A stretch of 64,000 nucleotides of DNA. Origin: an uncultured Acidobacteriota bacterium. Its GTDB lineage: Bacteria; Acidobacteriota; Terriglobia; Terriglobales; Acidobacteriaceae. Numbering within the stretch: position 1 is the first letter of the stretch; each line of letters starts with the position of its first letter. The DNA is taken from positions 111,739 through 175,738 of the forward strand of contig CAVUXK010000026.1 of the NCBI GenBank assembly GCA_963745435.1, given 5' to 3'. The notes under the pieces were generated by a model. The model worked only from the letters and a program-made list of their open reading frames with translations. It ran no database searches and was not told the DNA's origin. Positions 1 to 22,469 of the stretch are shown here, piece after piece. Both the position numbers and the translations under genes were made by a program.

Positions 1-458
1 CACGTGTCGGCAACGAACTCGCCGTTGACGACTGTGGGATCGAAATTATTCACGGGCAGCGGTTCCAGGCCGATCTCTTTGGCGAAAGAGACCACGACTT
101 CGTTGTCGCCAAAGGCCGACCCCGTTGCGTAAGCCTGCCCCTCATACTCCATCAGGTAGGCGTTCCCGCCGAGGTGTGGTTCTTTTTCGAGGAGCAGGAA
201 GTCTCTGTTCTGCAGCAAGTATGCGGATGTGAGCCCGCTCATGCCGCCACCCACGATCACAACATCATGATTTGCCGTGACTGGAGGCCGTGTAAATACT
301 TTGCCGTCGCGCACCTGATGGCAAATCTTGTTTTCTTCGCCCTCAACCGTGGGCGTGGCTCCGGCGGGAGCGGCGAACAGAGCTTGATCGATCGGACAGC
401 CCGATGCCACTGCACCCGCCACAACAAACTTGATGAAGTCCCTGCGATTGGAACTCAC
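1..458 (-). CDS. FAD-dependent amine-oxidase-like oxidoreductase with Tat signal (N-terminal ~152 codons; 3' end outside window)
   Basis: Not in the ORF track: GTG start at 456-458, open to the window edge. My reverse-strand translation reads VSSNRRDFIKFVVAGAVASGCP (twin-arginine motif). It continues DVVIVGGGMSGLTSAYLL..LLEKEPHLGGNA (GxGxxG FAD fold plus E..GG, typical of flavin amine oxidases). GGAGA lies 7 nt upstream, right after the upstream permease stop. Confidence 0.7.
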   Translation of the reverse strand, partial: MSSNRRDFIKFVVAGAVASGCPIDQALFAAPAGATPTVEGEENKICHQVRDGKVFTRPPVTANHDVVIVGGGMSGLTSAYLLQNRDFLLLEKEPHLGGNAYLMEYEGQAYATGSAFGDNEVVVSFAKEIGLEPLPVNNFDPTVVNGEFVADT

Positions 459-470
459 GTTGGGTTCTCC

Positions 471-1307
471 TTAGACTGCGGTATCGATCAGTTCCGCGGC
501 AACCTCTGTCGTGCCCTCGGCCTTGCGCAAGCGGTACCAGAGCGTGATCGCCGCCAATGAAAAAACGAAGATGATGGTTGAGATGGCATTAATCTCCGGA
601 GTGATGCCTCGCCGCAGCCTTCCCCAGATCTCGAGCGGCAGCGTGTTGTTACGCCCGATCAGGAAGAAACTCACGGCGATCTCGTCCATCGAGAGAGTGA
701 AAATCAACAATGCAGCGCCGATGATTGACAGCTTCAAGTTGGGGAGCGTTACGCGCAAGAAAGTCTGCCAGTAGTTGGCGCCCAGATCGAGCGAGGCCTC
801 TTCCTGTGCCCGGTCCAGTTTCTGAAGGCCGGCGAAGACCTCGGTGGTTGCCACTGAAATCAGAGCGGTACCGTGGCCGAGCACGATCGTCAGCAGGCTG
901 AGCTTGATGTGCGATTCGTTAAACAGCATCAAGAGCGAGAGGCCTGTGATGATTCCGGGCAAAATCAACGGCAACAGCACCAGGCGGCGGAAGAGAGCTT
1001 TTCCGGGAAATTGCGCGCGGTCGAGTGCGAGCGCTGCAGGGATACCTAGACCCAGCGCGATGGCCACGGCGCACGCAGCCACAAGCAGGCTGTTGCCGAC
1101 TGATTCCCAGATCGCACCGTCTGCGAAGAGCGTCCGATACCAATCGAGCGTCAGATCGCGTGGCGGGAAACCGCCGACTCCTGCTCCGTTGAAAGAGTAA
1201 ACAATCAGCACTGCGATCGGCAGATACAAAAATGCGAAAACCACGATGGCATGGGCCGTCAGCCATCGGGATCCTTGTACTCCCGCGCCGCTCATGAAAA
1301 ACTCCAT
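471..1307 (-). CDS. ABC transporter permease, spermidine/putrescine PotC-like
   Basis: ORF 471..1307 (278 aa), multi-TM, with EAA loop QEEASLDLGANYWQTFLRVTLPNL. An alternative ATG at 1295 overlaps the upstream stop as ATGA. Gene order is SBP-ATPase-permease-permease. Confidence 0.85.
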   Translation of the reverse strand: MEFFMSGAGVQGSRWLTAHAIVVFAFLYLPIAVLIVYSFNGAGVGGFPPRDLTLDWYRTLFADGAIWESVGNSLLVAACAVAIALGLGIPAALALDRAQFPGKALFRRLVLLPLILPGIITGLSLLMLFNESHIKLSLLTIVLGHGTALISVATTEVFAGLQKLDRAQEEASLDLGANYWQTFLRVTLPNLKLSIIGAALLIFTLSMDEIAVSFFLIGRNNTLPLEIWGRLRRGITPEINAISTIIFVFSLAAITLWYRLRKAEGTTEVAAELIDTAV

Positions 1308-2140: not shown

Positions 2141-2142
2141 GG

Positions 2143-3238
2143 TCAGGATATCTCCGCCGATTCGCGGACCGGCACTGCGTCCGCCGGATCAAACTCGAAT
2201 TCCAGTTGGCCCTGCCAGTCGGGTCGCGCCGCAGCTCGCACCGAAAACGTCAGCCCGTCCGCGCATTCGATTTGCAACAACTCCGTCGAGCCGTGAAAAG
2301 CTCGATGTCTCAACTGCCCTCGGAACCGCACTGTGTCCCGCGAGCCCGATGGTCCGGCGACGCGAATGTTTTCGGGACGCAACGACAGTAGCGCGGGGCC
2401 ATCGGAAAGCGGCGCCGCCCACGAAAGGGAATTGCAGCGAACGACTCCCCCCTGCACTGTCGTTCGCAGAAGATTTGTGTGCCCGATGAACTGAGCCGTG
2501 TAAGCGGTTGCCGGCCGGCTGTAGATTTCGCGCGGGCTCGCTACTTGTTCCAGTTCTCCCATGCGCAACAGCGCGATCCGGTCCGACATGACCATCGCCT
2601 CTTCCTGGTCATGCGTCACGAAGACGAACGCGATACCAACTTCTCGCTGCAGGGATTTCAACTCCACCTGCATCTGGCGGCGCAGGTTCGCGTCCAACGC
2701 CGAGAGCGGTTCGTCCAGCAGCAATAGCTGAGGACGCTTTACCGAGCGCCCTGGCCAGGGCGACGCGCTGTTGCTGACCACCGCTGATTTTCGACGGCTT
2801 GGCTTTCGCATGGACAGTCATCTTCACTCGAGCGAGTGCCTGTTCCACGCGCGCCGAAATTTCCGCCCCAGTCTGTTTCTCCACGCGCAGCCCGTAGCCG
2901 ACGTTCTCCTCGACCGTGAGGTGAGGGAACAGGGCATAGTGCTGAAAGACCGTGTTGACGCGTCTCTTATAAGGAGGCAGCACGTCCAGGCGCTCGCCCT
3001 TCATCCAGACTTCGCCCGACGTCGCGCCCTCAAATCCCGCGACGATGCGCAGCAGCGTCGTCTTGCCGGAGCCGCTTTCTCCGAGAATCGTAAGGAACTC
3101 GCCTTCGGCGACTTTGAGAGAAATGTCGCGGAGCACCACGCTTTTTCCGAAGGTCTTTGCAACTTTGCGAATCTCGAGAAGCGTCGCCGAGGCGATTGTT
3201 CCCGAAGCCGTGCTCTCGGACTGTTCGGTGGTCAGCAT
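2143..3238 (-). pseudogene. ABC transporter ATP-binding protein, PotA-like; frame broken by one indel near 2742
   Basis: ORF 2609..3238 carries Walker A GESGSGKTT and the signature ISGGQQQRVALARAL. ORF 2143..2811, in another frame, carries Walker B LLLLDEPLSALD, H-loop VTHDQ and a PotA-type C-terminal domain (AQFIGHTN). Deleting one C of CC at 2742-2743 gives the continuous read ALARALVKRPQLLLLDEP. Confidence 0.9.
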
Positions 3239-3305
3239 GATTCCGTGTTGCGCTACTTCTCAAGCGCGAGCCGGGTCGTGCGATGCAACTGCCCCTCGTG
3301 ATCGG

Positions 3306-4367
3306 CTATTGCGCCGCTTTCACTTCGTTCCATATCTCGTTGTACTTCGGACGCCGAGGTACGTCTTGCCAGAAGTAGATCCGCTTCTGATAGCTGTCGA
3401 CATCATCGAGATGCAAGCCCTGTCTTTGCTCGGCGGTCATGAGTGGTCCAGCTTGCGGGTTTGCAGGAACGTAATTCGTGACGTCGGCGACCAGTTTCTG
3501 CGTTTTCGCCTGGACCATGTACTCGAGAAACCGGTACGCGAGTTCTTTATTGTCGCTGGCAGCCGTGATCATCAGGTGATCGATCCAACCGGTGGTATTT
3601 TCCTTGGGAATTGTTTCTCCCACCGGAAAGTTCTTCTTCTTCAGTTCCACGGTATTCAGCGGCCAGCCCATCGCCACGACCACTTCGTGATTTTGAAAAA
3701 GGTTCGTGAGTTCGCCCCCGCTCGTCCACATTTTGCGAACGTTCGGTTTCAGTTCCAGCAGCTTTTTCTTGACCGCCTCGAGTTGAGTATCGCTCAGGTT
3801 GTACAGCTGGTTTGGATCAGGTCTGTCGTAGCCGAGAAGTTGTGCGGCCATGAAGACGGTCGAAAGATCATCCCAAACTGAAATCTTGCCGCGATACTTC
3901 GGATCCCACAGCACACTCCAGCTGTCGGGCGGTTGCGCAAAAGCCGTCGTGTCGTAGATCAGCGGATTGGGACCCCAGGTAAAGGGAACGCCGTAGACGT
4001 TGTCCTTCACACGAACGAGCGACATGGAAGTCAGCTTTGAAGAGAGCTGGCTGTAGGTCGGAATACGCGACAGATCGAGCGGCGCGGCAAGGCCGGCCGA
4101 TGCGATCATGGTCGCGACATCGCTCGACGGAGAGATCACGTCATAATTGCTGGCGCTGCCGCCTCGCAGCTTGGCAACCAGTTCGTCGCTCGATCCCATG
4201 TAAGACGCGGAGACCTTGCACTGGCACTGCTCTTCGAAGCCTTTCACGAAGAGCGGATCGGCGTAGCCTTCCCACACCAACAGATTCAGCGTCGGGTTTT
4301 TCTTTGCACAGGATCCGAGAGCGAGTGTTGCGACCAGTAGAGCAATGACTGCAGATAGCCTGCGCAT
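3306..4367 (-). CDS. Periplasmic polyamine-binding lipoprotein, PotD/PotF family
   Basis: ORF 3306..4496. The likely start is the internal Met at 4367, giving MRRLSAVIALLVATLALGSC (lipobox). The body resembles PotD/F (LNLLVWEGYADP..YDVISPSSD..). Codons upstream of 4367 overlap the amidohydrolase tail. Confidence 0.8.
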   Translation of the reverse strand: MRRLSAVIALLVATLALGSCAKKNPTLNLLVWEGYADPLFVKGFEEQCQCKVSASYMGSSDELVAKLRGGSASNYDVISPSSDVATMIASAGLAAPLDLSRIPTYSQLSSKLTSMSLVRVKDNVYGVPFTWGPNPLIYDTTAFAQPPDSWSVLWDPKYRGKISVWDDLSTVFMAAQLLGYDRPDPNQLYNLSDTQLEAVKKKLLELKPNVRKMWTSGGELTNLFQNHEVVVAMGWPLNTVELKKKNFPVGETIPKENTTGWIDHLMITAASDNKELAYRFLEYMVQAKTQKLVADVTNYVPANPQAGPLMTAEQRQGLHLDDVDSYQKRIYFWQDVPRRPKYNEIWNEVKAAQ

Positions 4368-4371
4368 GGAC

Positions 4372-6158
4372 CTACTTCGCCTCCACTTTGTGCTGAGTAC
4401 TCGCTGATTTCCAGTCTGCAGACTCGTAAACAACTTTTCCGCCGACCATCGTGAGCAGAACTTCTGTCTTTCCGATTGCCGTCGGCTCAATCTCAAACAA
4501 ATTGCGGTCGATGACGATCAAGTCCGCAAGCTTCCCCTTTTCCAGCGATCCTTCCCTTTGCTCGCGATGTCCGGCAAACGCCGCGCCCATGGTGTAACCG
4601 CGAATCGCATCGGCCAGGCTGATGCGCTCCTTCGGAACAAAGCCTTCCGGAGGATTTCCTTCAACCGTCTGACGAGTGACCGCATTTTGTATCCCTTCCC
4701 AAGGATTCAAGCGTCACGATCGGCCAGTCGCTGCCAAAAGCGAGAACTGCCGCCGTCGGCCTGAACGCTGCGCCACGCCCATCCGCGCTGGCCACGCTCG
4801 GGCCCAACGTTGCGAAGCCACACCAAGAGCGTGTCATCGTCGGGATAAGCATGCAGAGGCTGAAAACTGGCAATGACTCCCAGCTTGCCGAAGCGAGGTA
4901 TGTCTTCCGCGGACACATCTTCGATGTGTTCAATGCGATGGCGCCGATCCTTCGTGCCGTTCTGCTGGGCAGCGTTTTCGTACGCATCCAGCGTCACGCG
5001 AATTGCCCGATCCCCAATTGCATGCGTGAAGATCTGAATTCCGCGCTTGTCGAGATCGGCAACGATATTTTTATAGGTCACCGGATCCCACAGCAGGCTG
5101 CCGGAAAGCTTGGGATCGTCGCTGTACGGAGCGAGCATGGCGGCCGTGTGCGATTCGATCACGCCGTCCATGAAGAACTTCACTGCGCCGGCGGAGATCC
5201 ACTCGTCGTGATACTTGCTGCGCGCGTCTTCGACTTCCTGCATTTGCTTTGGCGTCAGGGTTGGCGGCTCCGCACGGTACGCCATATACATCCGCACGGT
5301 GAGTTCGCCCGACTTGCGCATCTGCTCGAGCAGATCTGCATTCATCAGGTCGCTCATGCCGACGCCCACTCCTCCGGCGGCATGAACGCGCACCAATCCA
5401 ACGCGGTTCGCTTCCTTGAACCCTGCTTTGTAGGCAGCGAGTTTCTCTTCCCGCGAGGGCAGCGGCAGAACGGGAATCATCAGCGCGTCGGCGGAGTCTT
5501 CTTTTAGTGCACCCGTCGGTTCCCCTGTCGCCGGATCGCGGACGATTTCGCCACCAGGAGGATTTGGCGTTTCACGCGTGATCCCCGCCAATTTCAGGGC
5601 TTTGCTGTTTGCCCACCAGGTGTGTCCATCGAATGCCTCAAGGTAGACGGGGCGGTCGGGAATGATCGCGTCGAGATCTTTCTTGTTGGGAAGATTCGTT
5701 GGCCCCATCGCCGGGTAGGTCCAGCCGCGTCCGCGCACCCACGGTTGCTCAGGGTGCGCCTCGGCGTAAGCTTTAACCCGCCGCAGGATTTCCGGAATAT
5801 CCTTCGCGTCGTCGAGGTGCACACGATCCAGGCTCAACGCGCCATCGAGAAAGTGCGTATGGCAATCGGTGAGTCCGGGCAGAAGCAACCGACCGCCGGC
5901 ATCGATGACTCTGGTCTTGCTGCCGCGATAGGCGTCGACATCCTTCGCACTCCCGACCGCGAGGATCTCGTCCCCGTGGACCGCAATCGCCTCCGCCCAA
6001 GCCTGCTTCGGATTCATCGTATATACGCGGGCATTCACCACTAAAACGTCGGCGATTGGATGAGTGTCGTCCTTGGCATGACTGCAAGTCACCACGGCAA
6101 CAAAGACGAGTAGAAACTGGATGGCAACCCGAGCGCAGGATCGGAGTTTTGCTCTCAA
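4372..6158 (-). pseudogene. Secreted metal-dependent amidohydrolase (Amidohydro_3-like); two indels near 4700-4760
   Basis: ORF 4707..6158 has a signal peptide (MRAKLRSCARVAIQFLLVFVAVVTCSHA) and the metal motif LPGLTDCHTHF. The C-terminus continues in ORF 4661..4987 (VLAFGSDWPIVTL) and ORF 4372..4710 (NPWEGIQNAVTRQ..GSLEKGKLADLIVIDRNLF). Confidence 0.8.
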
Positions 6159-6186
6159 AAGTGTCCTCAGTGAATAACTGGGAACT

Positions 6187-6207
6187 GGCCACTAACCACT
6201 AACCGCT
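6187..6207. repeat. Short heptanucleotide array (AACCACT-type), 3 units
   Basis: ggccact aaccact aaccgct, between the amidohydrolase start and the regulator stop. Confidence 0.6.
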
Positions 6208-6210
6208 GCA

Positions 6211-7011
6211 CTAAAACGTTGGCGGAGTGTTCACCCAAAGCACCCATGTTTCAGAGCGCCCGGGGTTCTTCCACCGGTGAGGCGTCGCGCTTTCAAAGTA
6301 GAAACTGTCGCCAGACTTCAATCGAAATTCCTGGCTGTCGAGAGCCAAGTGCAACTCGCCCCGCAAGACCATCAGGAACTCCTCGCCTTCATGGGTATAG
6401 GACTCGCCGCTGCCTGCCTTCGGCGCGATACGAAACAGATGAGGTTCCATGACGGTATTGCCCCAGGCCAGCAACTCCATGCGCACGCCCGGTCCGGCTT
6501 CGAGCACTTTACGCTCAGACGGTCGCACTAATCTTCGATTGGTCTCAGCAGGATCAAAAAAGTCGAGGATGTTCGTTTTGTAGAAACGCGCCAGGCGTCG
6601 GAGCGTGGCGATGGATGCGCTCATCTGCGAACGCTCGATGGCGCTGAGGAAGCCCACGGAAATTGTCACCGCTCTTGCCACCTCTGCCAAAGACAGTTTG
6701 CGTCGCAAGCGCAGTTGGCGCAGGCGCGCACCGATGGCCCCAACAGCACCATCTGTCGTGGGTCGCAACAAACCTTCGCGCTTGAGGAGTTCCACAATAG
6801 CCGGTGCATTCAGACCGCGCACCCGCCTCAGGAAGCGTGCGCGTTTGAGCAACTTCACATCTTCGGCTGTGTACAACCGATACTTGCTCTCGGTGCGCTG
6901 CGGACGGGTCAGGCCCAGACTCTCCCAAGTACGAATTACTGACGGAGAAACCCCCACCATGCGCGCCACATCGCCGATTTTCAAGTAAGGTTTGGCGCCG
7001 TTCGCATTCAT
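6211..7011 (-). CDS. Three-domain transcription regulator: MerR-type HTH + XRE-type HTH + C-terminal cupin (PuuR-like core)
   Basis: 266-aa ORF. Residues ~10-78 read YLKIGDVARMVGVSPSVIRTWESLGL..YRLYTAEDVKLLKRARFL (MerR). Residues ~95-150 read LRQLRLRRKLSLAEVARAVTISVGFLSAIERSQMSASIATLRRLARFY (XRE). Residues ~190-260 form a cupin (HTHEGEEFLMVLRGEL..GDSFYFESATPHRW). Confidence 0.8.
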   Translation of the reverse strand: MNANGAKPYLKIGDVARMVGVSPSVIRTWESLGLTRPQRTESKYRLYTAEDVKLLKRARFLRRVRGLNAPAIVELLKREGLLRPTTDGAVGAIGARLRQLRLRRKLSLAEVARAVTISVGFLSAIERSQMSASIATLRRLARFYKTNILDFFDPAETNRRLVRPSERKVLEAGPGVRMELLAWGNTVMEPHLFRIAPKAGSGESYTHEGEEFLMVLRGELHLALDSQEFRLKSGDSFYFESATPHRWKNPGRSETWVLWVNTPPTF

Positions 7012-7065: not shown

Positions 7066-7114
7066 TTGACAGTGCGCGGCAGGTTCTCTAACCTTGCGCG
7101 ATTATAGCAAGGTT
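7066..7114 (+). promoter_or_regulatory. Candidate sigma-70 promoter (TTGACA-17-TAACCT) overlapping a perfect 8-bp inverted repeat operator
   Basis: TTGACA at 7066-7071 and TAACCT at 7089-7094. Inverted repeat AACCTTGC-N9-GCAAGGTT at 7090-7114. It lies in the divergent region between the MerR/XRE/cupin regulator and the TonB-dependent receptor. Confidence 0.4.
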
Positions 7115-7183
7115 TCTAGTTGGCGCAAGCGAATCTGTTGGCCAAGAATCGATCGGAAAATTTCCCCGCCTCCCGGAGGTCTT

Positions 7184-10100
7184 ATGCGGTCGTTGAAAGC
7201 GACGCGAGTCCCGTTCGTCCTCTTCTTCTGCCTCGTTTGTTCCACCCTGCTGATCGCACAAAGCACGGGCGGCCGAATTCTGGGGCGCGTGTCCGATGCC
7301 AGCGGCGCGATCGTGGCAGGCGTCAAAATCAACCTGACTAACGACGCCACCGGAGCGAACCGTGACGCCACCACCAGCGAGAGCGGGGACTATGTTTTCG
7401 TGGAGGTGCCGCCTGGACAGTACAGCGTCAGGTTCGAGCAGCAGGGTTTCTCGAGTAACCTGCGCAAGGGCGTAACGGTCGAGATCAATCAGGTCGTCAC
7501 GCTGAATGTGACGATGCAGGTTGGGCAGACGAAAGAAGTCGTAGAAGTCACCTCCGACGCTCCTCTGATCGAAACTACCAGCACGCAGATGGGCGCAGTG
7601 GTCAACGAGCGTTCCGTGGTGCAGTTGCCGCTCAACGCGCGCGACACCTATCAGTTGCTGTCGCTGCAGCCTGGCGTGCAGTCACAGACTGGAACCGACC
7701 TCTTCTACGGCAGCGATCGCGCCGGGGTTGTTTCGGTGAATGGCGGCCGTGGACGCTCCAACAACTTCAGCGTCAATGGCGGCGACGCCAACGATCAGTT
7801 CGCGAACCTGCCCGCGGTGCAGCCTTCTCCAGATTCCATCGAAGAGTTCCGCGTTCTGACGAATACCTTCGACGCAGAGTACGGCCGCAATTCCGGAGCC
7901 GTGGTCAACGTGGTCACGAAGTCCGGAACGAACAGTCTGCATGGAAACGTGTACGAATTTTTCCGCAATGATGCTTGAACTGCCAAGGGGTACTTCGACA
8001 TCGAGAAGCCCGCTTTCCATCAGAACCAGTTTGGCGGAACGTTGGGCGGACCCATCAAGAAAGGATCGGACCTTCTTCTTCACTTCGTATGAAGGCCGGC
8101 GCATCCGGAAGGGAAATCCTCGGATGCCGTGACCGTACCCACGGCTGACGAGCGCAGACGGTAATTTCGGTGCCGAGGTCGGTATTCGTCAGGCTCGATT
8201 AACGACCAGACCGTTGGCCGGACCAACTCGCTGCAAACGACGTATCGGCGCGGGGCCTGCGCAACTACTGATGTAAGCGCCGCGGGCGGTTCACTGCGAT
8301 CGCTCCGGGCCCAGTCGTTCGCTGACATTTTTCCGGGCAACTAGATTCCGACATCTTGCATGGACCCAGTCGCAGTCGACCTGATGAACCAGTTCGTGCC
8401 CCAGGGCAATCGACCTCTCGGACGGCACTCGGTCTTCCAGACCGTCGCCGGTATCCACAAAGACCGCACCGACCAGTTCACCGGCAAGCTGGATCACCGG
8501 ATCAACGACAAGCAGAACCTGTCGGCTTACTACTATTTCAACGACAGCACGTTGTTCGATCCTTACTCGCGCTTCCAGTCGGGCGGCGCCGATGTGCTCA
8601 ATTTCGGTGCGGGCACGCGCGGAGCGCTACCAGCAAGCGAACGTGACCCACAACTTCACGATCACCAACGCCCTCGTCAACGAGGCACACTTCACTTACT
8701 TCCGAGAGGCCCAAGGCACATTCCTCCATCCGCAGCGAACCAACCTGGTGCAGAATTCCTGCGCCACCGTCTCACCCGACGCCTGCTTCAGTGATGGCAC
8801 GCCGGGCAATGCCACCGGCATCCATCCGGGCTTGGGAGCGAGTCGCGAAGGCGTTCCGTTTGTGACGCTCTCCGGCGGTTTCGCGTTCGGCAACAACTTC
8901 GAAGGCGAGATCCCGCAATCCGGGAACACGTATCAGATCTCTGACAACCTGAGTTGGGTAAAGGGCACGCACACCATGAAGTTCGGAACCGACGTGCGCC
9001 GCCAGCAATTCGATCAGACCCTCTACTACAACGTGAACGGCGAGTACAACTACTACGGCGGCGGACCCAAACGATGTCGGGCTTCGACGATCTGATGCCC
9101 AACTATCTTCTGGGGCTTCCCGATACCTACAGTCAGGGCTCAGGACAGATTGAGAAGGTACGCAGCACGATCTTCTCTCTGTTCGCCCAGGACAGCTGGA
9201 AGATTCGTCCGAACTCAACCTTGAACTACGGATTGCGTTGGGAGTTGTTCACTCCGCTGACCGATGTCAGCCAGCACGTGCAGAGCTTCCGGCCAGGACA
9301 GGTCAGCACCGTTTATCCGTGCCAGCTCTCTCAGTCGAGCATCGACTTCTTCACGACATCAAATCGGATTTCGCAAACCCGGACTGCAACAACACAGGAG
9401 TGATTCCCACCGGCCTGGTGGTTCCGGGCGACAAGGGCATTCCCGCCGCGCTGACCTCCACCTACTACAAGACGTTTCGCTCCGCGCCTCGGCATCGCCT
9501 ACAGCCCCGGCACTTCCGGCAAGACCAGCATTCGCGCTGGCTGGGGCATGTTCTACAACCCGATGGAGCAATTGGTGCTCGAGCAGTTCAGCGCAGAGCC
9601 TCCGTTTGGCGGCAGCAACATCATCAACTACCCGCTCTTCAATACTCCGTTTGAAGATCAGACTGGTCTCGATCAAACCGAATCCGTTCAACGGGATTTT
9701 GAATCCTCCGCGAAATCAGCCAGTGGACTGGTCGATCTACCGGCCGATCCTGCTCTATGGACAGTTCCAACCGCATCTGCGCACGCAGTACTCGGCGCAG
9801 TACAACCTGAATATCCAGCGGGAGCTCACGAAGGATCTTGTTCTGCAGGTCGGTTATGTCGGCTCGCAAGGACACCGCTTGCTGGCCAGTCACGACGTGA
9901 ACTATGGCAACGCCCAAACGTGCTTGGACCTGCAAGCGATTTCGGACTCAACCGGCGACACTGATCTGGCGTGCGGCCCCTTTTATGCTGACAGTGTCTT
10001 CCAGATTCCGGGTGGCACGGTTCTCCCGGTCGATCTCCATCTGCCGTACGTACAAAATCACTCAACGATTGCCGCAGGCACGACCTTAGGGCCGAATGGG

Positions 10101-12462: not shown

Positions 12463-12521
12463 TTCGGTAGCGCCGCAGTCTCGGCGGCAGTCGTCAGGGG
12501 CGGCGGGGCGCTCGCCCGACT

Positions 12522-12538
12522 GCCGGCAAGATGCCGGC
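12522..12538. repeat. Small GC hairpin (GCCGGCA-aga-TGCCGGC)
   Basis: 7-bp perfect stem between the aminotransferase stop (12462) and the permease start (12599). It could act as a terminator or as a REP. Confidence 0.5.
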
Positions 12539-12598
12539 GCTACGAACTGCGTACGCGGAGATCAGCGTGACGCATATCGATGATCCGGGAGATGAGCA

Positions 12599-14040
12599 TT
12601 GTCTGATCAGAAACACGAACAGCCCCATCTGAAGCGTGTCCTGGGACGCTGGGATCTGGTGCTTTTGTTCGTAGTCGCGGTCTTTAATCTCAATGTCGTC
12701 CCTTCCATCGCAGCCAATGGCGGTGTAACGGTCTGGCTCTGGATCATCTCGCTTCTTCTTTTCTTCTGGCCGCAAGGCATCGCCGTGATCGAATTGGCAC
12801 AACGCTATCCGGGCGAGGGAGGCGTCTACCTGTGGGCCAAGGAAGTCTTCGGTGACTTCCACGGATTCCTCTCCGGCTGGTGTTACTGGACCAACAACAT
12901 GCTGTATGTGCCGACGGTCATGCTGTACTTCGTCGGCGTATCAGTCTTTGCCATGGGGTCGGGCCATGCCAGCCTGGCCGACAACAAGACATTCGCCATG
13001 GTCATGTCGCTTGCGCTGCTGGCTTTTCTCACCGTTCTCAACATCGTGGGACTCGGCGTCGGCAAGTGGCTGAACAACGTGGGCGCGATCGGGACATTTG
13101 TCGCCGCGGCGGTACTGATCGTTTTAGGCCTCACCATCTATCTTCGCTTCGGCACCACCGTGACGGCCAGCGACTTCCGCATTCCCGCAGACCCGCGCTT
13201 CGTCTTGAATTCGTTCGGAGTGATCTGCTTTGGACTGGTGGGCCTCGAACTCGCCTCGATCATGGGCGACGAGATCCGTGATCCTAAACGCACGCTACCG
13301 GGTGCAGTCGCGTGGGGCGGAGTGTTGTCGGGCGCGCTCTACATCGGAGCTACGCTGACTCTGCTGGTCTCGGTCCGCAAAGATGAAATCAGCGTTCTGC
13401 AAGGAATTGTGCAGTCGGTAAGCCATATGGCCGCCAAGGTTGGTGTCGGGTGGATCATCGCGCCCTTCGCCGTCATGCTGAGCCTGTCGATCGCGGGCAT
13501 CGGTTCGGCATGGATGGGCGGTTCGGCGCGTATCCCGTTCGTAGCGGGGCTCGATTCCTACATGCCCTCCTGGCTCGGGAAGATTCATCCAAAGTACGCG
13601 ACGCCGTACGCAGCGCTGATCGTGCAGGCGATCGTTTCGGCGATTCTCGTCGTAATTAATTTTTATGCTTCCGGAGGGGTTCAGGAAGCCTTTCAAAGGA
13701 TGCTGTCTCTGGCGGTCGTACTGCAGTTGGTGCCGTTTCTGTATGTGTTCGCCGCGTTGCTGAAGTTCGCATTCCGAAGGCAACTCGAGGGCGGTCGCTA
13801 TAGTCGTGGCACGCTATCTATTTGCGGGAGGCGCCGGCTTCATCACGACCACGCCTCGGCATCGCGCTGGCATTCTTCCCGGCGAAGCAGATCACTTCGG
13901 TGTGGAAGTACGAAGTCAGCATGATCGGTATCACGCTCGCCTTTTTGTTGCTGGCGGTGTTTTTCTTTTTCGTTTATGGAAGGCTGAAGTCACCGCGAAA
14001 CTCGGCCGTCGAGCAGGTCGAAGTAGTGCGGTCCGCGTGA
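12599..14040 (+). pseudogene. APC-family amino-acid/polyamine permease; two indels near 13803 and 13855
   Basis: ORF 12599..13924 (TTG start, GGAG 8 nt upstream) has about 11 TM helices. The last helices continue in ORFs 13806..14054 (ARYLFAGGAGFITT) and 13822..14040 (LGIALAFFPAKQITSVWKYEVSMIGITLAFLLLAVFFFFVYG). Confidence 0.75.
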
Positions 14041-14070
14041 AGCGAAGTTATTAAGTTTTTGGAGAACGAT

Positions 14071-15553
14071 ATGCCCAGTGGAGTTCAAGCCGACGTCAAG
14101 ACCTACCAGATGTTCATCAACGGCGAATGGGTCGCCAGCAAATCGGCGAAGACTTTTCCGGTTTACGATCCTTCTTCCGAAGAAATCATCGCGCAAGTTG
14201 CTGACGCCAATGCCGACGACGTGAACCGCGCGGTTGCCGCAGCGAAAGCCGCTTTCGAAGACGGCCCGTGGGCCACCACCACCGCGCAGGAACGAGGCCG
14301 CGTTCTTTTCCGTCTGGCCGAGAAGATCCGCCAGAACCTGCCCGATGCTGGCCGAACTCGAATGCCGCAACACCGGCAAGCCGATCGTCGAAGCCGAGTA
14401 CGACATGAACGACACGGCCACCTGTTTCGAATACTACGGTGGACTAGCCACCAAGATTCTTGGCTTCGTCAACCCGGTGCCCGATAACGCGGTGAGCCTT
14501 ACGCTGAAAGAACCGATCGGGATTGCCGGACAAATCATTCCGTGGAATTATCCGCTTCTGATGGCTGCATGGAAACTCGCTCCGGCGCTCGCCGCTGGAT
14601 GTACCTGCGTGCTCAAACCAGCTGAGCAGACCCCGCTGACTGCCCTCGAATTCGCCAACTGGTTTGCGGATGCCGGACTTCCTCCGGGCGTCGTCAACAT
14701 CATCACAGGGTTTGGCGAGACGGCCGGCGCGCCGCTTGTGCAGCATCCGGACGTTAACAAGATCGCCTTCACGGGCAGCGCCGCCGTGGGCAAGATTATC
14801 GTGAAGCAGGCCGCCGACACCGTGAAGCGCGTGACGCTCGAACTGGGCGGCAAGTCGCCAAACATCTTCTTTGCCGACGCCGATTTCGAAGCCGCCATCG
14901 ACGGCGCTCTATTCGGTGTGTTCATCAACCAGGGAGAAGTCTGCTCGGCCGGTAGCCGCATTCTGGTCCAGAAGTCGATCTACAAGAAGTTCGTCGATGC
15001 GATGGCTGAGAAAGCGAAGAGGATCAAGCTGGGTGCTCCGCTCGACCGCGACACCAAGATGGGGCCGCTGGTGAGCAAGGATCAATACGACCGCGTGCGC
15101 TCCTACATGGAAATCGGCAAGAAAGAAGCGAAGGTGGCTTTCGGAGGGAATCGGGCCGAGCAGTTCGCCAAGGGCTACTACGTGCAGCCGACCATCTTCT
15201 ACGACGTCGATAATTCCGCTCGCATCGCGCGTGAAGAAATTTTCGGTCCCGTTGCAGCGGTAATTCCGTTCGAGGACGAGAAAGACGCGGTCAAGATCGC
15301 AAACGATTCTCCCTACGGCCTGGCCGCTGCCGTCTGGACGCGCGACATCTACAAGGCCTTTCGCGCGGTGAAGGCTTTGCGCGCTGGCATCGTGTGGGTC
15401 AACCACATGCAGCCTACCTACGTCGAGGCGCCCTGGGGTGGCTACAAGCAGTCAGGCTTTGGCCGCGAGCTCGGCCCGTGGGGCATTGAGGAATATCTCG
15501 AGACCAAGCAGGTCCACATCAATCTGAACGAAGCACCAATCGGATGGTACTGA
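14071..15553 (+). pseudogene. NAD-dependent aminoaldehyde (betaine/gamma-aminobutyraldehyde-type) dehydrogenase; one indel at 14341-14343
   Basis: ATG at 14071 with GGAGA at 14061. ORF 14059..14487 plus ORF 14234..15553. Motifs: IIPWNYPLLMAAWKLAPALAAG, ELGGKSP, GEVCSAGSR (catalytic Cys). Deleting one c of ccc at 14341-43 restores IRQNLPMLAELECRNTGKPI. Confidence 0.85.
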
Positions 15554-15554: not shown

Positions 15555-16919
15555 ATGGCAACGATTCAACTGAAGACGCAGATTCCCGGTCCGAAATCAA
15601 AAGCGCTCGGGGAGCGCCGCTCCAACGCCGTGCCGCGCGGTCTTTCGCATGCCACGCCCATCTATGTCGCCAAGACGGAAGGCGCGATCCTCGAAGACGT
15701 CGACGGCAATCGCTACATTGATTTTGCCGGAGGCATTGGTTGCCTGAACACCGGCCACCGCGCTCCGGGCGTCCTTACAGCAATCGAGCGGCAGCTCGAT
15801 AAATTTCTCCACACGTGCGTACAGGTCACGCCCTACGAAAGCTACATCCGGCTGGCTGAGCGGATGAATCAGGTCACGCCCGGAGACTTTCCGAAGAAGA
15901 CTTTGTTCGTAAACAGCGGCGCGGAAGCGGTCGAAAACGCAGTGAAGATTGCGCGAGCCGCCACCGGTCGCCCCGGCATCATCGCATTCGAAGATGCGTT
16001 TCACGGGCGCACCATGATGGCGCTCTCGCTCACCAGCAAGACACATCCTTATAAAGCGGGATTTCAGCCCTTCCCGGGCGAGGTGTACCGCATCCCGTAC
16101 GCTTATTGCTACCGTTGCTCTTATTCGCTGAAGTATCCGTCTTGCGATCTCTATTGCGCGCGCCATCTCGAAGACACGTTCAAGCGTGTGGTTGCGCAGG
16201 AGGGCGTGGCTGCGGTCATTGCAGAGCCGGTTCTGGGCGAAGGCGGCTTCGTCGCTCCCCCCTTGGATTACTTCCGCACCTTGATCGACATCTGCCACAA
16301 GCATGGCGTCCTGTTTATCGCCGACGAAGTGCAGACAGGTTTCGGTCGCACCGGAGCGCTGTTCGCGTGCGAGCGCTACGGCATCGAGCCCGACATCATC
16401 ATCACCGCCAAGTCCATTGGTGGAGGCCTTCCGCTCGCCGCCATCACTGGCCGCGCCGAAATTATGGATGCCCCCGGCCCCGGCGGACTCGGAGGAACAT
16501 TCGCTGGAAATCCGGTGGCCTGCGAAGCTGCCCTCGCCGTCCTCGACATGTTCGAGCAGCAAGACTTAAACGCGCGCGCCAACGAATTGGGCGAGCAATT
16601 TCAGAAGCGAGCTCGCGTCTGGCAAAAACGCTGGCCCATAATCGGTGAAGTGCGCGGCCTCGGTGCCATGCAAGCTCTAGAGCTTGTACAGTCACAGGAC
16701 AAACGCGAACCGGCTACCGAAGATACGAAAGCCATCACACAGTATTGCTACGAACACGGTGTGATCACGATCTCTGCCGGCACGTACGGCAACATCATTC
16801 GTCTGCTGATGCCACTTGTGATCACCGACAATCAAATGGACGAAGCGCTTGACGTGCTGGAGGGCGCGCTGAAGACCGTTTACGAAAAGAAACACGAAGC
16901 GGCTGCGCAGCCGGTGTAA
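15555..16919 (+). CDS. gabT: 4-aminobutyrate aminotransferase (class-III PLP enzyme)
   Basis: Intact 454-aa ORF. It reads GPKSKAL..AVPRG..YIDFAGGIGCLNTGH..FIADEVQTGFGRTG..IITAKSIGGGLPLAA, collinear with GabT. The start lies 2 nt after the upstream stop. Confidence 0.85.
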   Translation: MATIQLKTQIPGPKSKALGERRSNAVPRGLSHATPIYVAKTEGAILEDVDGNRYIDFAGGIGCLNTGHRAPGVLTAIERQLDKFLHTCVQVTPYESYIRLAERMNQVTPGDFPKKTLFVNSGAEAVENAVKIARAATGRPGIIAFEDAFHGRTMMALSLTSKTHPYKAGFQPFPGEVYRIPYAYCYRCSYSLKYPSCDLYCARHLEDTFKRVVAQEGVAAVIAEPVLGEGGFVAPPLDYFRTLIDICHKHGVLFIADEVQTGFGRTGALFACERYGIEPDIIITAKSIGGGLPLAAITGRAEIMDAPGPGGLGGTFAGNPVACEAALAVLDMFEQQDLNARANELGEQFQKRARVWQKRWPIIGEVRGLGAMQALELVQSQDKREPATEDTKAITQYCYEHGVITISAGTYGNIIRLLMPLVITDNQMDEALDVLEGALKTVYEKKHEAAAQPV

Positions 16920-17006
16920 TCTAAGAGGCAAACGTAAAGCGCCGGCAAGCCAGGTCCTGTCCTGTCGCGCACGATATTCTTCACGATAGCTGAGGCAAAA
17001 CCTACC

Positions 17007-18497
17007 ATGAGTACTGCCATCATCACGGAAGCAAAAGTTCCGCACTACATCGACGGTCAGTGGGTTGAGTCGAACGCCCGCGAATGGTCCGAGATCATTA
17101 ATCCCGCCACCGGCGAAAGTCTCGGCAAAGTTCCTATTTCAGACGCGGCCGAAGTCACCAAGGCCATCGATGCCGCGGCGGCCGCGTATCCCGCGTGGCG
17201 CCGCACGCCGCCGGAAGACCGCATCCAGCCGCTCTTCAAACTGAAGAATCTTCTTGAACAGCACGTCGACGACATCAGCCGCCTCATCACCCAGGAAAAC
17301 GGCAAGACCTTTACCGAAGCCAAAGCCGAGATGCGCCGCGCCATCGAGAACGTCGAAGTCGCCTGCGGCATTCCGACCATGATGCAGGGCTACAACCTCG
17401 AAGATGTCGCGCGTGGCATCGACGAGATGATGATCCGCCAGCCGCTGGGCGTAACCGCAGCCATCGTGCCGTTCAACTTCCCGGGGATGATCGCTTTCTG
17501 GTTCCTGCCCTACGCGATCGCGACCGGCAACACTTTCATCCTGAAGCCCTCCGAGCGCGTACCGTTAACGATGCGCTACGTCTACGAACTTCTCGAAAAG
17601 ACAGGACTGCCTAAGGGCGTCGTCAATCTCGTGAACGGCGGCAAGGTTGCGGTCGATACGCTCATCGACGATCCGCGCGTGCGCGCCATCAGCTTCGTTG
17701 GATCGACTCCCGTCGCCCGCTACATCTACGCGCGCTCCGGAGAAAAAGGCAAGCGTGCCCAGTGCCAGGGCGGCGCGAAGAATCCCGTGATCGTCCTGCC
17801 CGACGCCGACATGCAGATGGCCACACAGATCATCGCCGACAGCGCCTTCGGATGTGCAGGCCAGCGCTGCCTCGCCGTCTCGGTAGCGGTCACGATCGGC
17901 GACGCGCAGAAGACCTTCCGCGACGCCATCGCCGACTCAGCCTCGAATTTGCGCGTAGGCAACGGGCTCGACGAAGGCGTGCAAATGGGGCCCGTCATCA
18001 CCAAGCAGAGTAAAGACCGCATCGAGTCCCTCATCGGTGTGGGCGAGAAACAGGGCGCCAAAGTTCTGGTTGACGGACGCAACCCGAAAATTCCGCGGCA
18101 CGAGAAGGGCAATTTCGTGAAGCCAACCATTCTCGATTCCGTGCCCGCAACCAGCGACCTCTCGCACACGGAAATCTTCGGACCCGTTTTGAGCCTGGTT
18201 CACGCCAACGACATGGACGAAGCTATGGCCTTCCTTGAGCGCAATCCCTACGGCAATCAGGCATCGCTGTTCACATCGAGCGGAGCCGCCGCGCGCCGCT
18301 TCCGCTACGAAGCGCCTGCCGGAAACATCGGCATCAACATCGGCGTAGCCGCCCCGATGGCGTACTTCCCGTTCAGCGGCTGGAAAGACAGCTTCTTCGG
18401 CATAATGCACGGCCAGGGCCGCGACTCGGTCGAGTTCTACACCGAGAAAAAAGTAGTGGTCGAGCGCTGGGCCAAAGAGCATTCACGGAAGTTCTAA
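17007..18497 (+). CDS. mmsA: CoA-acylating methylmalonate/malonate-semialdehyde dehydrogenase
   Basis: Intact 496-aa ORF. Catalytic region [10 protein letters not shown]. The MmsA-type C-terminus reads [33 protein letters not shown]. Confidence 0.85.
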
Positions 18498-18504
18498 CCT
18501 TTGT

Positions 18505-18534
18505 CGATGGAGCGACGGGCGTCCTCGCCCGTCG
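18505..18534. repeat. REP-like hairpin, family A (GATGGAGCGACGGGCG-loop-CGCCCGTCG)
   Basis: cgatggagCGACGGGCGtcctCGCCCGTCG: a 9-bp stem starting 8 nt after the mmsA stop. Confidence 0.8.
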
Positions 18535-18560
18535 AACTCCAGGGAGTTTTCGAAGCCATC

Positions 18561-19899: not shown

Positions 19900-19919
19900 T
19901 CTCTCCTTCGCATCCGCAG

Positions 19920-19947
19920 GCCGAGGCGACGCGTCTTCCGCCTCGGC
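19920..19947 (+). terminator. Hairpin downstream of the aminotransferase gene
   Basis: GCCGAGGCG (19920-28), 10-nt loop, CGCCTCGGC (19939-47), followed by TTGTGATG. It begins 21 nt after the reconstructed stop. Confidence 0.45.
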
Positions 19948-20265
19948 TTGTGATGCAAGTCACATGCACGTGTGACAAGTGCACCTGCCGCACTCTTTCT
20001 CCCCGGCAATACTCCCAGCAATGCAGACAGAGAGGTCCGCTTTCGGGGTTCTCTGGTGCGCTAGGAGTGATCAAGTGGAAAGACTGAGAGTGATCTGGAG
20101 AAATCCCAAGCCCGCGCCTCGTAAGCGCCGCTGGCACGAACTGGCCGCCAATGTGGGCCGTCGCCTGTTTGTGGTCGAAGAGTTGGTTCAGGGCCAGGAG
20201 AATCGCTGGGCTCGCACGATTGCCCTCGAGTTGATTACCTTCCGGCGGAGAGTAGCCTGACTGAG

Positions 20266-21236
20266 TTAAGGACCAGCTTGGACTGGTTCCGCCGGCTGAT
20301 AGAGCTCGGGAATTCCGGCCACGGCCTTCGCCTCTGGTGGTTTTACGTGCAGCTGTTCGCACAAGAATGTGACCCGGTCGCGCGTTGCCTCCGCGTTCAG
20401 AGCATGCGGCGCATCATAGATTTTCAGTTTCTTCGGTTCGCTCACGACGGCCGCGTAGGCGCGCGCACGATCGGGATTCAAAAACTTCTCTTGTGCGCCA
20501 TATTGTAGAAAGATGGTGGCTGGCGCGGCATGCGCAACAAACAGTCCTGGATCAAGCCATCCGTTCTTTGCAATGAACGCGTCGAATTTCTCCGCACCAA
20601 CCTTCTCCCGATACTGCTTCAGATCCTCGCTCTGCAAGTCCAGCGCATCCGACAATCCGCCAGCCATCAGCACGAAGGCCTTGAAACGCTTGTCGACTCC
20701 GCTGAGAGTTCCGCCGACGCCTGCGTTGTAGCTGTGCCCGACAAACGCTAAGCGTGCCGGATCGACATCGGCAGCGTGCCAGCAGCAGATCTGCGCCTCG
20801 CCGCATGTCCACGATGGCCTGAATCAGTTCTGGCGTTTCCGCATCGTTGAGAGGGGCGTTGTTCTCGACGTGGCCGGGTCTGGCGATCGGTCCATCGGGC
20901 AGCAACGACACGACACCGGAATGCGCCAGGACAATGGCCTCGTCGAGAAACTCGGAGCGGTTGCGCATCGATGAATTCGACCAGTACCAGTGTCCCCACA
21001 GCACGGCCGCGAACGGACCCTTGCCCTCCGGCACCACCAGGTATGCCGGAACGCGGCCGCCTTTCGGGCTGGCGTAGGAGATGTCATGAACCGACTACGT
21101 TGCCCCACTTTTCGACGGACACTTCTTTCACGTCGAGCGGGGCATTGTGATCGTAGTCCAGGCGTTTGACCGACTCGGGATCCTGCGCAAGCAGTGGCAG
21201 AGCGATCACAAGAATGACTCCCAATAGGGATCGCAT
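20266..21236 (-). pseudogene. Secreted alpha/beta hydrolase (dienelactone-hydrolase-like); at least 2 indels
   Basis: ATG at 21236 gives MRSLLGVILVIALPLLAQ (signal peptide), which hits a stop after ~50 codons. The gene continues in ORF 20552..21037 (PAYLVVPEGKGPFAAVLWGHWYW) and ORF 20266..20673. A nucleophile-elbow-like FVGHSYNAG is readable in a third frame near 20740. Confidence 0.65.
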
Positions 21237-21284
21237 GATGGCACTCCGTTGAACACGGGCGGGGCGCCCGCGCTACACACAAAG

Positions 21285-22469
21285 TTATTTGGTCAGACGA
21301 TTGTACTTCTTCAGCACCTCGCGCAGACGATCGTGGGGCAACGCTATGACTTCGAAATCGTTAATCCCTTTCATCGTTTCGGCGGCCACCATGGCATTGA
21401 TGACGGCCTCCTCGGTTGCCTGCACGGTCGCCAGGAAGAGCGGGTTAATATCCTCGTTGGGAAGCATCGTGATCTGCCGCAGCCCTTTGGACTTGGCGGC
21501 TTCGGGATTTGCTGTTGAAAACGCGACGAAAATATCGCCCGACCCATCTCCGGAAAAACTGCCGTCGCGTCCCAGCCCGAGCGAGACTCGCCTCACCAAA
21601 CGTTTCAACTGCGTCGGAATCAAGGGTGCATCCGTGGCGACCACCACGATGATCGATCCCACATCGTTATCGCGAACTTTGTGATCCGGGATCTCGCGGC
21701 CTACCGGGACGCCGGCAATGCGCAACTGGCTTCGCCATCCATAATTGCACTGCACGAGCACGCCAACCGTATAGCCTCCATACTTTGCGTCGAGCACGCG
21801 CGACGCGGTTCCAATCCCTCCCTTGAATTCGTTGCAGACCATGCCCGTTCCGCCGCCCACATTGCCTTCCTCGACGGCACCGCCATGAGCGCTATCCAGC
21901 GCGTGCCAGGCGTGCTCCGGCTTCACGTGGAAACCGTTGATGTCGTTCAGATCTCCGTCGTAGGTTTCCGCCACCACCGGCAGCGACCAGTCATAGCCAT
22001 TCTGATCAGGCGGAGCTTTTTTTACCCGCCACGCGATGACCGCGTCGCGTACCACTCCGACGCTGTGCGTGTTCGTGATCATCACCGGCCCGTCCAGAAA
22101 GCCGGAATCCTCCAGCCATGTCGTGCCCGTCATCTCGCCATTGCCATTCAGCGTGAACCAGGCGCCGAAGACCGGGTCGGTGGAATCCTTGCCGCGCGGC
22201 AACACTGCCGTCACCCCGGTCCGCACCGGGCCCTGGCCGACCACCAGCTTTCCCGATCCTGAGATCAGCGTGGTATGTCCCACCTCGACGCCTTTCACGT
22301 CCGTGATCGCGTTGTACGGCCCGGGTGTTCCATCAAAGGGCACTCCGAGGTCGCGAGCCCGAGGCTTGACTTGCGCCATCGATTTCGGAGCACAAAACCC
22401 CAAAAGAAGTACAGCGACGAGCGCGACCAGCGACGCCGAACGAGCGAACGGGTGGGGCCTGGCGATCAT
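21285..22469 (-). CDS. Secreted DmpA/BapA-type (peptidase S58, P1 family) aminopeptidase
   Basis: Intact 394-aa ORF with an N-terminal signal peptide (ASLVALVAVLLLGFCAPKSMAQ). S58-like body: NAITDV.GV.VGHTT..NVGGGTGMVCNEFKGGIGTAS..IIVVVATDAPL. Confidence 0.75.
   Translation of the reverse strand: MIARPHPFARSASLVALVAVLLLGFCAPKSMAQVKPRARDLGVPFDGTPGPYNAITDVKGVEVGHTTLISGSGKLVVGQGPVRTGVTAVLPRGKDSTDPVFGAWFTLNGNGEMTGTTWLEDSGFLDGPVMITNTHSVGVVRDAVIAWRVKKAPPDQNGYDWSLPVVAETYDGDLNDINGFHVKPEHAWHALDSAHGGAVEEGNVGGGTGMVCNEFKGGIGTASRVLDAKYGGYTVGVLVQCNYGWRSQLRIAGVPVGREIPDHKVRDNDVGSIIVVVATDAPLIPTQLKRLVRRVSLGLGRDGSFSGDGSGDIFVAFSTANPEAAKSKGLRQITMLPNEDINPLFLATVQATEEAVINAMVAAETMKGINDFEVIALPHDRLREVLKKYNRLTK

Follow-up and report, generated by a model that had tools for sequence, protein, structure and literature searches.

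The DNA examined here is a 64-kb window (~59% G+C) from an uncultured bacterium of the Terriglobales, and its positions 1-22469 carry an island of transporter, aminotransferase, dehydrogenase and exported-enzyme genes, most of which form two divergent arms on either side of a control region. Among the matches listed, the closest species-representative genome is a Microflora-Danica-type metagenome-assembled genome (MAG) with 85-92% nucleotide identity to the window. A preliminary description of this DNA had listed a TonB-dependent receptor, two inner-membrane transport systems, class-III aminotransferases, aldehyde dehydrogenases and several exported enzymes. We used Pfam and NCBIfam hidden Markov models (HMMs) together with PDB comparisons to assign families, and these analyses recovered every type on that list except the "alpha/beta hydrolase", which had no hit to either Pfam or NCBIfam.

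The rightward arm (plus strand) opens with a gene for a TonB-dependent transporter (TBDT) of the Oar subclass (7184-10976; ~1260 aa), which starts at the ATG at 7184 with GGAGG ahead of it and encodes a signal peptide, a CarboxypepD_reg extension (PF13620), a plug (Plug) and a large barrel (OMP_b-brl_4). The next gene, AT3a (11079-12462), encodes a class-III aminotransferase resembling glutamate-1-semialdehyde (GSA) aminomutase, which passes the NF000818 subfamily model (412 bits against a cut-off of 398) and matches GSA aminomutases in the PDB at 1e-88, as well as PctV and the beta-phenylalanine/beta-transaminases (1e-51 to 1e-56). Two more specific identities were rejected for AT3a: that of a HemL equivalog, given a TIGR00713 score of 390.6 bits against a cut-off of 527.3 and the position of the gene in a catabolic operon, and that of a PatA/YgjG-type enzyme, PatA structures matching at only ~4e-31. 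Further along the arm lie a permease of the amino acid-polyamine-organocation (APC) superfamily (12599-14040; AA_permease_2), related to GadC, PotE and CadB, whose NCBIfam matches to GadC-type and basic amino acid/polyamine antiporter models all fall below cut-off, and an NAD(P)-dependent aldehyde dehydrogenase (ALDH; Aldedh; ~14050-15553, start approximate) of the betaine-aldehyde/omega-aminoaldehyde type. The latter scores below the curated cut-offs for betaine-aldehyde dehydrogenase (BADH; TIGR01804, 567 against 668 bits) and aminobutyraldehyde dehydrogenase (NF010000, 511 against 615 bits), its nearest PDB entries being BADHs and plant aminoaldehyde dehydrogenases (1e-155 to 1e-141). Only 1 nt separates it from the gene for GabT, a 4-aminobutyrate:2-oxoglutarate transaminase (15555-16919; TIGR00700, 561.7 bits against an equivalog cut-off of 506.65). 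The arm ends with MmsA, a CoA-acylating (methyl)malonate-semialdehyde dehydrogenase (17007-18497; TIGR01722, 555.3 bits against 448.5), and AT3c, a class-III omega-aminotransferase of the PRK06062 subfamily (18562-~19899; NF004718, 505-521 bits against 472) whose nearest solved relative is a taurine:2-oxoglutarate aminotransferase (PDB 6JIX, 1e-105).

Two hairpins resembling repetitive extragenic palindromes (REPs) interrupt this arm on the plus strand: a long GC-rich one between AT3a and the permease (12462-12545), with a minimum free energy of -64 kcal/mol, and one recognised by its fold, CGACGGGCG-tcct-CGCCCGTCG, between MmsA and AT3c (18509-18539), of which a second copy lies at 63150-63179. 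The first shows excess metagenome depth and loose ends, and the second a depth spike flanked by loose ends in four metagenomes; because of this, we regard both as dispersed repeats, and they may segment expression of the operon.

The leftward arm (minus strand) begins with a regulator gene, to which we return below, and continues with an exported, metal-dependent amidohydrolase of the Amidohydro_3 (YtcJ-like) family (~4372-6158; ~600 aa; PF07969), which in the PDB matched only the uncharacterised metal-dependent hydrolases 3ICJ and 3IGH. Beyond it lie all four components of a probable PotABCD/PotFGHI-type ATP-binding cassette (ABC) importer, namely a lipoprotein substrate-binding protein (SBP) of the PotD/PotF/YdcS family (3306-4367; SBP_bac_8; LALGSC lipobox by inspection), a PotA-like ATPase (2143-3238; ABC_tran and TOBE_2, found in two frames) and the PotB-like (1292-2140) and PotC-like (471-1307) permeases (both BPD_transp_1), with potC adjoining potB in the relatives that reach that far. 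The best NCBIfam matches of the SBP are YdcS, PotF and PotD, all below cut-off (147 against 725 for YdcS); its nearest PDB entry is 6NLP, the nearest named structures are PotF (1e-30), PotD (4e-26) and SpuD/E, and the ligand residues are only partly conserved in the PDB alignment. A look-up of the window's PotB protein in public assemblies returned no record. At the very start of the window lie the N-terminal ~152 aa of a flavin amine oxidoreductase predicted to be exported by the twin-arginine translocation (Tat) system (1-458; NAD_binding_8, Amino_oxidase), which begins at a GTG at 458, 8 nt past an AAGGAG, bears the twin-arginine motif SNRRDFIKF and runs past the window start. Its orthologs are ~507-509 aa long, and those of two relatives, at loci L009 and L081, match positions 1-442 of the 443 in PF01593. 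Identity with the spermidine dehydrogenase SpdH was ruled out, the profile-to-PDB match (2e-11) covering query positions 4-107 only, that is, the Tat signal and the FAD-binding N-terminus; an AlphaFold2 model, built on an alignment of close relatives only, was poor (mean pLDDT 48). The homologs listed for the oxidase and for the regulator come from uncultured soil bacteria and bear automated names only. The leftward genes are tightly packed, with ~5 nt between the amidohydrolase stop and the SBP start and with the potC stop codon overlapping the ribosome-binding site of the oxidase gene, and they are translationally coupled.

Many of these genes, namely those for PotA, the amidohydrolase, the TBDT, AT3a, the APC permease, the ALDH and AT3c, together with that for the exported hydrolase described below, are each broken into two to five reading frames in the window. 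Orthologs in Illumina-assembled MAGs (L063 and L014) are intact. We therefore aligned contigs of four independent short-read soil metagenomes to the window. These were one base shorter at 2742/2747 (potA), 4712 and 4747 (amidohydrolase), 8063, 8618, 10499 and 10816 (TBDT), 11047, 11833 (AT3a), 14341 (ALDH), 19812/19815 (AT3c), and 20772/20774 and 21095/21096 (hydrolase), and one base longer at 10317 (TBDT), 11051 and 12553. Positions 1-23500 thus differ from the short-read contigs by ~16 single-base indels, in almost every case a base too many in the window, and wherever short reads cover the locus the indels sit exactly where the frame changes; the frame changes outside this coverage are those in the permease gene (two, at ~13818-13855), in the hydrolase gene (~21254-21286) and in part of the TBDT gene. 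After correction of the indels, the reading frames of potA (371 codons), the amidohydrolase (605) and the ALDH (503), all counted stop to stop, are continuous again, as are those of AT3a and of the C-terminal half of the TBDT. Because the short-read contigs differ by single bases at these positions and correction restores the reading frames, the breaks are errors of long-read assembly and the genes are intact in natural populations. Pseudogenisation was ruled out on the same grounds, each frameshift that was checked being a single-base difference in the four metagenomes. In addition, the plus strand of positions 1-23500 holds four five-G runs against 33 five-C runs, which resembles a long-read error signature.

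The regulator (6211-7011, minus strand), the operator in front of it and the Oar architecture of the TBDT had all been missed in the preliminary description. The regulator combines an N-terminal MerR-type helix-turn-helix (HTH) domain (MerR_1) with an XRE-type HTH (HTH_3) and a cupin (Cupin_2). Its C-terminal two-thirds, comprising the XRE HTH and cupin, match the whole profile of Escherichia coli PuuR (NF007408, profile positions 7-185 of 185), and both proteins belong to amine-catabolic clusters. It is however not PuuR proper, as it scores 77.7 bits against the equivalog cut-off of 211, carries the extra MerR_1 domain and is not accompanied by puuA, puuB or puuD. This family is very large in soil metagenomes, where proteins grouped at 90% identity form more than 7000 clusters, and all 120 of the 120 members listed have the MerR, XRE and cupin Pfam domains.

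Conservation and matches to promoter consensus sequences delimit the divergent control region (7066-7128). Here a predicted rightward promoter (TTGACA at 7066-7071, a 17-nt spacer and TAACCT at 7089-7094) stands back to back with a predicted leftward one (TTGCGC at 7128-7123, a 16-nt spacer and TATAAT at 7106-7101), and a perfect 25-bp palindrome, AACCTTGC-N9-GCAAGGTT (7090-7114; in full AACCTTGCGCGATTATAGCAAGGTT), covers both -10 boxes. An alignment of 46 orthologous intergenic regions between the regulator and TBDT genes revealed a near-invariant block made up of TTGACA, 17 nt and TAACCTTGCGCGATTATAGCAAGGTT, the rest of the spacer being variable. The operator occurs in a single copy in the 64-kb window when up to three mismatches are allowed, so that no further copy was found near the S58 peptidase gene described below, near potD or near other genes of the window. 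At least one copy, with a conserved 25-mer spacer, is present in 98 of 160 loci. With the palindrome overlapping both -10 boxes, a single dimer bound there could silence the two arms at once, a suggestion that draws on conservation and consensus matches, and the likely binder is the adjacent regulator. In four loci (L032, L043, L048 and L051, at ~4470-4510) the operator is kept and the adjacent regulator is missing; in L009 (1931-2700) it is flanked by the genes for the amine oxidase and AT3a, with no TBDT, and in L022, L023 and L046 a second copy (~1300-1400) precedes a SnoaL-like gene and another APC permease. We take the operator to be unlike the site bound by E. coli PuuR.

We then examined how far this organization is conserved, using the permease as query against contigs from one genome per species. 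This search identified at least 557 relatives, of which the best 80 were analysed; presence counts refer to those of the 80 with 10 kb of sequence on the side in question, and the permease, being the query, provides no independent count. The gene order recurs in these 80 species-representative genomes, and for this reason, and given the at least 557 relatives, the clustering is not due to chance. On the side of the TBDT, the TBDT itself and AT3a were found in all 65 relatives, the regulator in 61, the SBP in 53 and the amidohydrolase in 26. On the other side, ALDH and GabT were present in all 67, AT3c in 45, MmsA and the S58 peptidase in 39 each, and the hydrolase in two. Of the metagenome loci that extend far enough past potC, about half have the amine oxidase as the next gene. 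MmsA and AT3c occur as alternatives more often than together (MmsA only in 21 loci, AT3c only in 27, both in 18, neither in one). Finally, genes for the ethanolamine ammonia-lyase EutBC, absent from the window, lie between AT3c and the S58 gene in 13-14 of the 80 loci, as at L010:15736-17949 (minus strand) and in L021, L066 and about ten others. The locus thus consists of an invariant core and of accessory genes that vary from one relative to another, every one from an amine- or amide-processing family. In line with the earlier expectation of a conserved neighbourhood, synteny extends across the relatives, and the catabolic operon starts with the TBDT gene in every case (65/65). The exported processing enzymes, in contrast, had been portrayed as an integral set, and this view did not survive the comparison, since each of them is variable.

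Taken together, the reading that we favour, with confidence a little above even, is that of a conserved Terriglobales regulon that acquires di- or polyamines, together with the omega- and beta-amino acids formed from these, and catabolises them by a transaminase route; the substrates are inferred. Polyamine or aminoaldehyde chemistry is suggested by four of the proteins, namely the SBP, the permease, the ALDH and the PuuR-like regulator. The island's reading frames encode no domains of the gamma-glutamylation (Puu/Spu) enzymes, that is, neither a PuuA/SpuB-like ligase nor a PuuD/SpuA hydrolase, and a transaminase route is therefore the sensible reading; the earlier judgement that this is not the classical Puu or Spu arrangement holds. 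Under this model, the PuuR-like repressor with its extra MerR-type HTH would bind the 25-bp palindrome over the -10 boxes of the two back-to-back promoters, and an amine ligand would relieve repression of both arms. Leftward transcription would then yield the regulator, in some genomes the periplasmic amidohydrolase, the PotD/YdcS-type ABC importer and, in about half, the Tat-exported amine oxidase, while rightward transcription would yield the Oar-type TBDT followed by the cytoplasmic route and the APC permease. The substrate would cross the outer membrane via the TBDT and, in some genomes, might be trimmed in the periplasm, the amidohydrolase acting on amide conjugates and the exported oxidase on secondary amines such as spermidine. 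Passage through the inner membrane may rely on the PotD-type ABC system, on the APC permease (by amine or amino-acid uptake or exchange) or on both. Inside the cell, AT3a would convert a primary amine to an aminoaldehyde and the BADH/aminoaldehyde-type ALDH would oxidise this to 4-aminobutyrate (GABA) or beta-alanine; GabT and/or the taurine/beta-alanine-type AT3c would then carry out a second transamination to succinate or malonate semialdehyde, the latter of which MmsA could turn into acetyl-CoA.

Several observations weigh against this model. No protein in positions 1-22469 passes the models for a GabD-type succinate-semialdehyde dehydrogenase (the best, the ALDH, scores 416 against 646 bits), and because no dedicated enzyme of this type is present, the route from putrescine through GABA to succinate is incomplete within the island. 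The beta-alanine branch, for its part, is not universal, MmsA and AT3c each being missing from at least one third of the relatives. The nearest relatives of AT3a are true GSA aminomutases, and it could alternatively be a beta-amino-acid transaminase or an aminomutase. Small polyamines would normally have no need of a TonB-dependent transporter. A generic promoter and terminator scan showed no enrichment over shuffled sequences, the promoter hexamers are supported by consensus matches only, and the locus was absent from the RNA runs that were searched. Of the single coherent route that had been proposed for the island, the enzyme and transporter families stand, and a near-invariant operator between the two divergent gene sets supports it; the GABA branch is incomplete within the island, and MmsA and AT3c tend to replace each other.

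The variability of the accessory genes raises the possibility that the locus is a hot spot of independent nitrogen-compound modules. In that case the core (TBDT, AT3a, APC permease, ALDH and GabT) would serve a single amino compound, the pot genes would be a neighbouring general polyamine importer, and the amidohydrolase, amine oxidase, MmsA, AT3c, S58 peptidase, hydrolase and EutBC would be unrelated insertions. The counts for the amidohydrolase, MmsA, AT3c, the S58 peptidase and the hydrolase given above fit such a picture, as do the occurrence of the oxidase in roughly half of the loci long enough to include it and of EutBC in 13-14 of 80, the single operator copy in the window with none near the S58 gene, and the strong REP-like hairpins that split AT3a from the permease and MmsA from AT3c. 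Random insertions would not be expected, however, to come exclusively from amine-, amide- and amino-acid-processing families. Moreover, the pot operon diverges from the TBDT gene across the shared operator in 53 of 65 loci, in L009 the amine oxidase lies directly across the same operator from AT3a, and the leftward genes are translationally coupled. We therefore consider a collection of independent modules unlikely, while giving it more weight than the two alternatives discussed next.

At the right end of the island lies a unit on the minus strand, convergent with the rightward arm, that bears on one of these alternatives. It comprises an exported aminopeptidase of the DmpA/BapA type (S58/P1; 21285-22469; PF03576, 389.7 bits; signal peptide by inspection) and an exported hypothetical hydrolase, possibly of alpha/beta fold (~20278-21236). 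The L063 ortholog of the hydrolase carries a GHSYN motif resembling a nucleophile elbow and a signal peptide, and a match to MHETase is marginal (E = 0.024); the hydrolase gene is frameshifted in the window at least twice, at ~20772 and ~21095, with the third frame switch near 21254-21286. The S58 peptidase is strongly similar over its full length to DmpA of Ochrobactrum anthropi (1B65, 9e-108) and BapA of Sphingosinicella (3N2W, 1e-99), and differs from these in the setting of its gene, here an optional, convergently transcribed neighbour. The island might instead be a system for beta-amino acids and beta-peptides, or for D-aminoacyl amides, in which the TBDT imports oligomers, the S58 peptidase and amidohydrolase release beta-amino acids, AT3a acts as a beta-transaminase and beta-alanine passes through AT3c and MmsA to acetyl-CoA. 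A large TBDT would suit oligomers, and AT3c is nearest a transaminase of taurine, a beta-alanine analogue, with MmsA adjoining it. The beta-phenylalanine/beta-transaminases matched by AT3a belong to the same GSA-aminomutase-like clade, and a Pseudomonas enzyme annotated as a GSA aminomutase transaminated a beta-amino acid (PMC4476821). AT3a itself is nevertheless much nearer to GSA aminomutases than to beta-transaminases, the S58 gene is missing in 28 of 67 relatives, is transcribed convergently and has no operator, and a beta-amino acid route has no need of the aminoaldehyde dehydrogenase; the SBP, permease, ALDH and PuuR-like regulator likewise indicate polyamine or aminoaldehyde chemistry. 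On balance, a beta-peptide system seems quite unlikely. Because the S58 gene is optional, convergent and without an operator, we did not count it in the regulon, and the best reading of the peptidase and hydrolase is as separately transcribed, loosely attached accessory neighbours, which removes them from the island route in which they had been placed earlier.

Returning to the amine regulon that we favour, the role of its invariant outer-membrane component deserves separate consideration. The TBDT is assigned to the Oar subclass, whose hallmarks are a PF13620 extension, a plug and a 22-strand barrel. The PF13620 extension scores 76.6 bits; the plug is borderline at 24.1 bits against a gathering threshold of 23.9, with nine of 30 orthologs at E < 0.01, and the ortholog consensus displays plug motifs of the typical kind, preceded by a candidate TonB box, VEVTSEAPLVDT, identified by inspection only. 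The intact L063 ortholog spans 1286 codons stop to stop and has a PF25183 (OMP_b-brl_4) barrel of 640 bits, and a sequence search against the PDB matched none of the solved TBDTs. In contigs of three metagenomes, the 63 nt at 10651-10713 of the TBDT gene are replaced by a 19-nt stretch, CCTTCACGGAAGACACGAC, for which either strain-specific variation in a loop or a misassembled stretch could account.

With respect to transport direction, the preliminary description had the receptor serve uptake; the receptor is certainly there, and for its direction we have assumed import. Bacteroidetes proteins of this architecture are SusC/RagA-type importers. Against this assumption stands Myxococcus xanthus Oar, which shares the PF13620 extension, plug and large barrel, is the sole characterised member of the subclass in the literature found, and acts in protein export, being needed for secretion of the protease PopC (PMC6434023). 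The TBDT might likewise export a protein, be it the oxidase, the amidohydrolase or the peptidase, so that amines would be released outside the cell and small products would enter via porins, and several enzymes with signal peptides are indeed encoded nearby. The present gene, unlike that of Oar, heads a catabolic operon. Furthermore, the TBDT is invariant and each exported enzyme optional, loci with a TBDT that lack the amidohydrolase, the amine oxidase or the S58 peptidase are common, and proteins with this N-terminal architecture are found mostly in Bacteroidetes (PMC6434023). An export function therefore appears to us improbable. A more specific proposal is that the TBDT is a dedicated, high-affinity, TonB-energised importer of polyamines, other small cationic amino compounds or their amide conjugates, and that it forms a core trait of the abundant soil Terriglobales. 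From a single 25-bp operator, a repressor of a new class, in which a PuuR-like sensor is joined to a MerR HTH, would control it jointly with the whole catabolic route. We offer this tentatively, as possible but doubtful. A limited literature search found no TonB-dependent uptake system described for polyamine-type substrates, so that it may be the first, and literature searches on TonB-dependent receptors with polyamines or putrescine, and with Acidobacteria, returned no account of the cluster.

Comparison with known systems helps to place the island. Its closest functional analogue is the E. coli route PatA/YgjG-PatD/YdcW-GabT-GabD with the ydcSTUV transporter, which follows the same logic of transaminase, aminoaldehyde dehydrogenase and GabT beside a PotD-family importer, and likewise proceeds without gamma-glutamyl intermediates; YdcS is also the best NCBIfam match of the SBP. 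The two differ in that the first transaminase of the island is GSA-aminomutase-like, with PatA a distant match (~4e-31), GabD is absent and the ALDH lies below the aminobutyraldehyde dehydrogenase cut-off. The island in turn adds a TBDT, an APC permease and MmsA, has a regulator architecture of its own, and is organized as a single divergent regulon with a shared operator.

In Pseudomonas aeruginosa, SpdH together with BauA and BauC provides a Tat-exported amine flavoprotein, a beta-alanine-type transaminase and a CoA-acylating malonate-semialdehyde dehydrogenase, as found in the island, and by analogy such parts would explain both the GABA and the beta-alanine branches. The likeness of the amine oxidases is however confined to the N-terminus, the regulators are unrelated, and AT3c is nearest a taurine:2-oxoglutarate transaminase, whereas BauA is pyruvate-dependent. 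The preliminary description had also likened the locus to a polysaccharide-utilisation locus (PUL). The island does share with Bacteroidota PULs and Xanthomonas CUT loci a TBDT with a carboxypeptidase-regulatory-like extension, set beside periplasmic hydrolases, transporters, cytoplasmic enzymes and a regulator. It is no PUL in the strict sense, in that its reading frames include no SusD-like lipoprotein and no glycoside hydrolases, and its cargo is presumably nitrogen-rich and small.

To the left of the island, the closest metagenome relative (L081) has a 507-aa amine oxidase followed by TypA/BipA, and because TypA/BipA comes next there, we place the end of the island at the amine oxidase. 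To the right, position 22469 is followed by unrelated genes for a LuxR-type regulator, Ysc84, LpxL and LpxD, and then by housekeeping and signalling genes. Three overlapping frames at 23479-25527 (plus strand), the last of which ends in a GerE/LuxR HTH, probably represent a further regulator gene that assembly errors of this kind have disrupted. Farther away, and unrelated to the island, lie genes for a sedolisin-type (pro-kumamolisin) peptidase, a methyl-accepting chemotaxis protein, a PAS histidine kinase and a sigma-54 activator (40724-42847, minus strand, and 54372-63124). An Rfam scan detected no riboswitch or other Rfam element in the island, and the sole match in the window is an Acido-Lenti-1 small RNA (RF01687) at 46491-46538 on the minus strand (51.8 bits against a gathering score of 37).

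The interest of the locus lies mainly in the invariant TBDT gene with which an amine-catabolic operon begins, in the regulator-operator pair and in the breadth of its distribution across a dominant soil lineage, and the invariant operator and compact regulator offer a directly testable handle. If the proposed import function is correct, the known cargo range of TonB-dependent transporters would be widened. Terriglobales are among the most abundant soil bacteria, and their nitrogen and carbon sources are poorly defined. Should the amine regulon be borne out, a cluster shared by so many species-level genomes (at least 557) would suggest that polyamines or related amino compounds are actively scavenged at very low concentrations; these could stem from necromass, root exudates or decarboxylation products.

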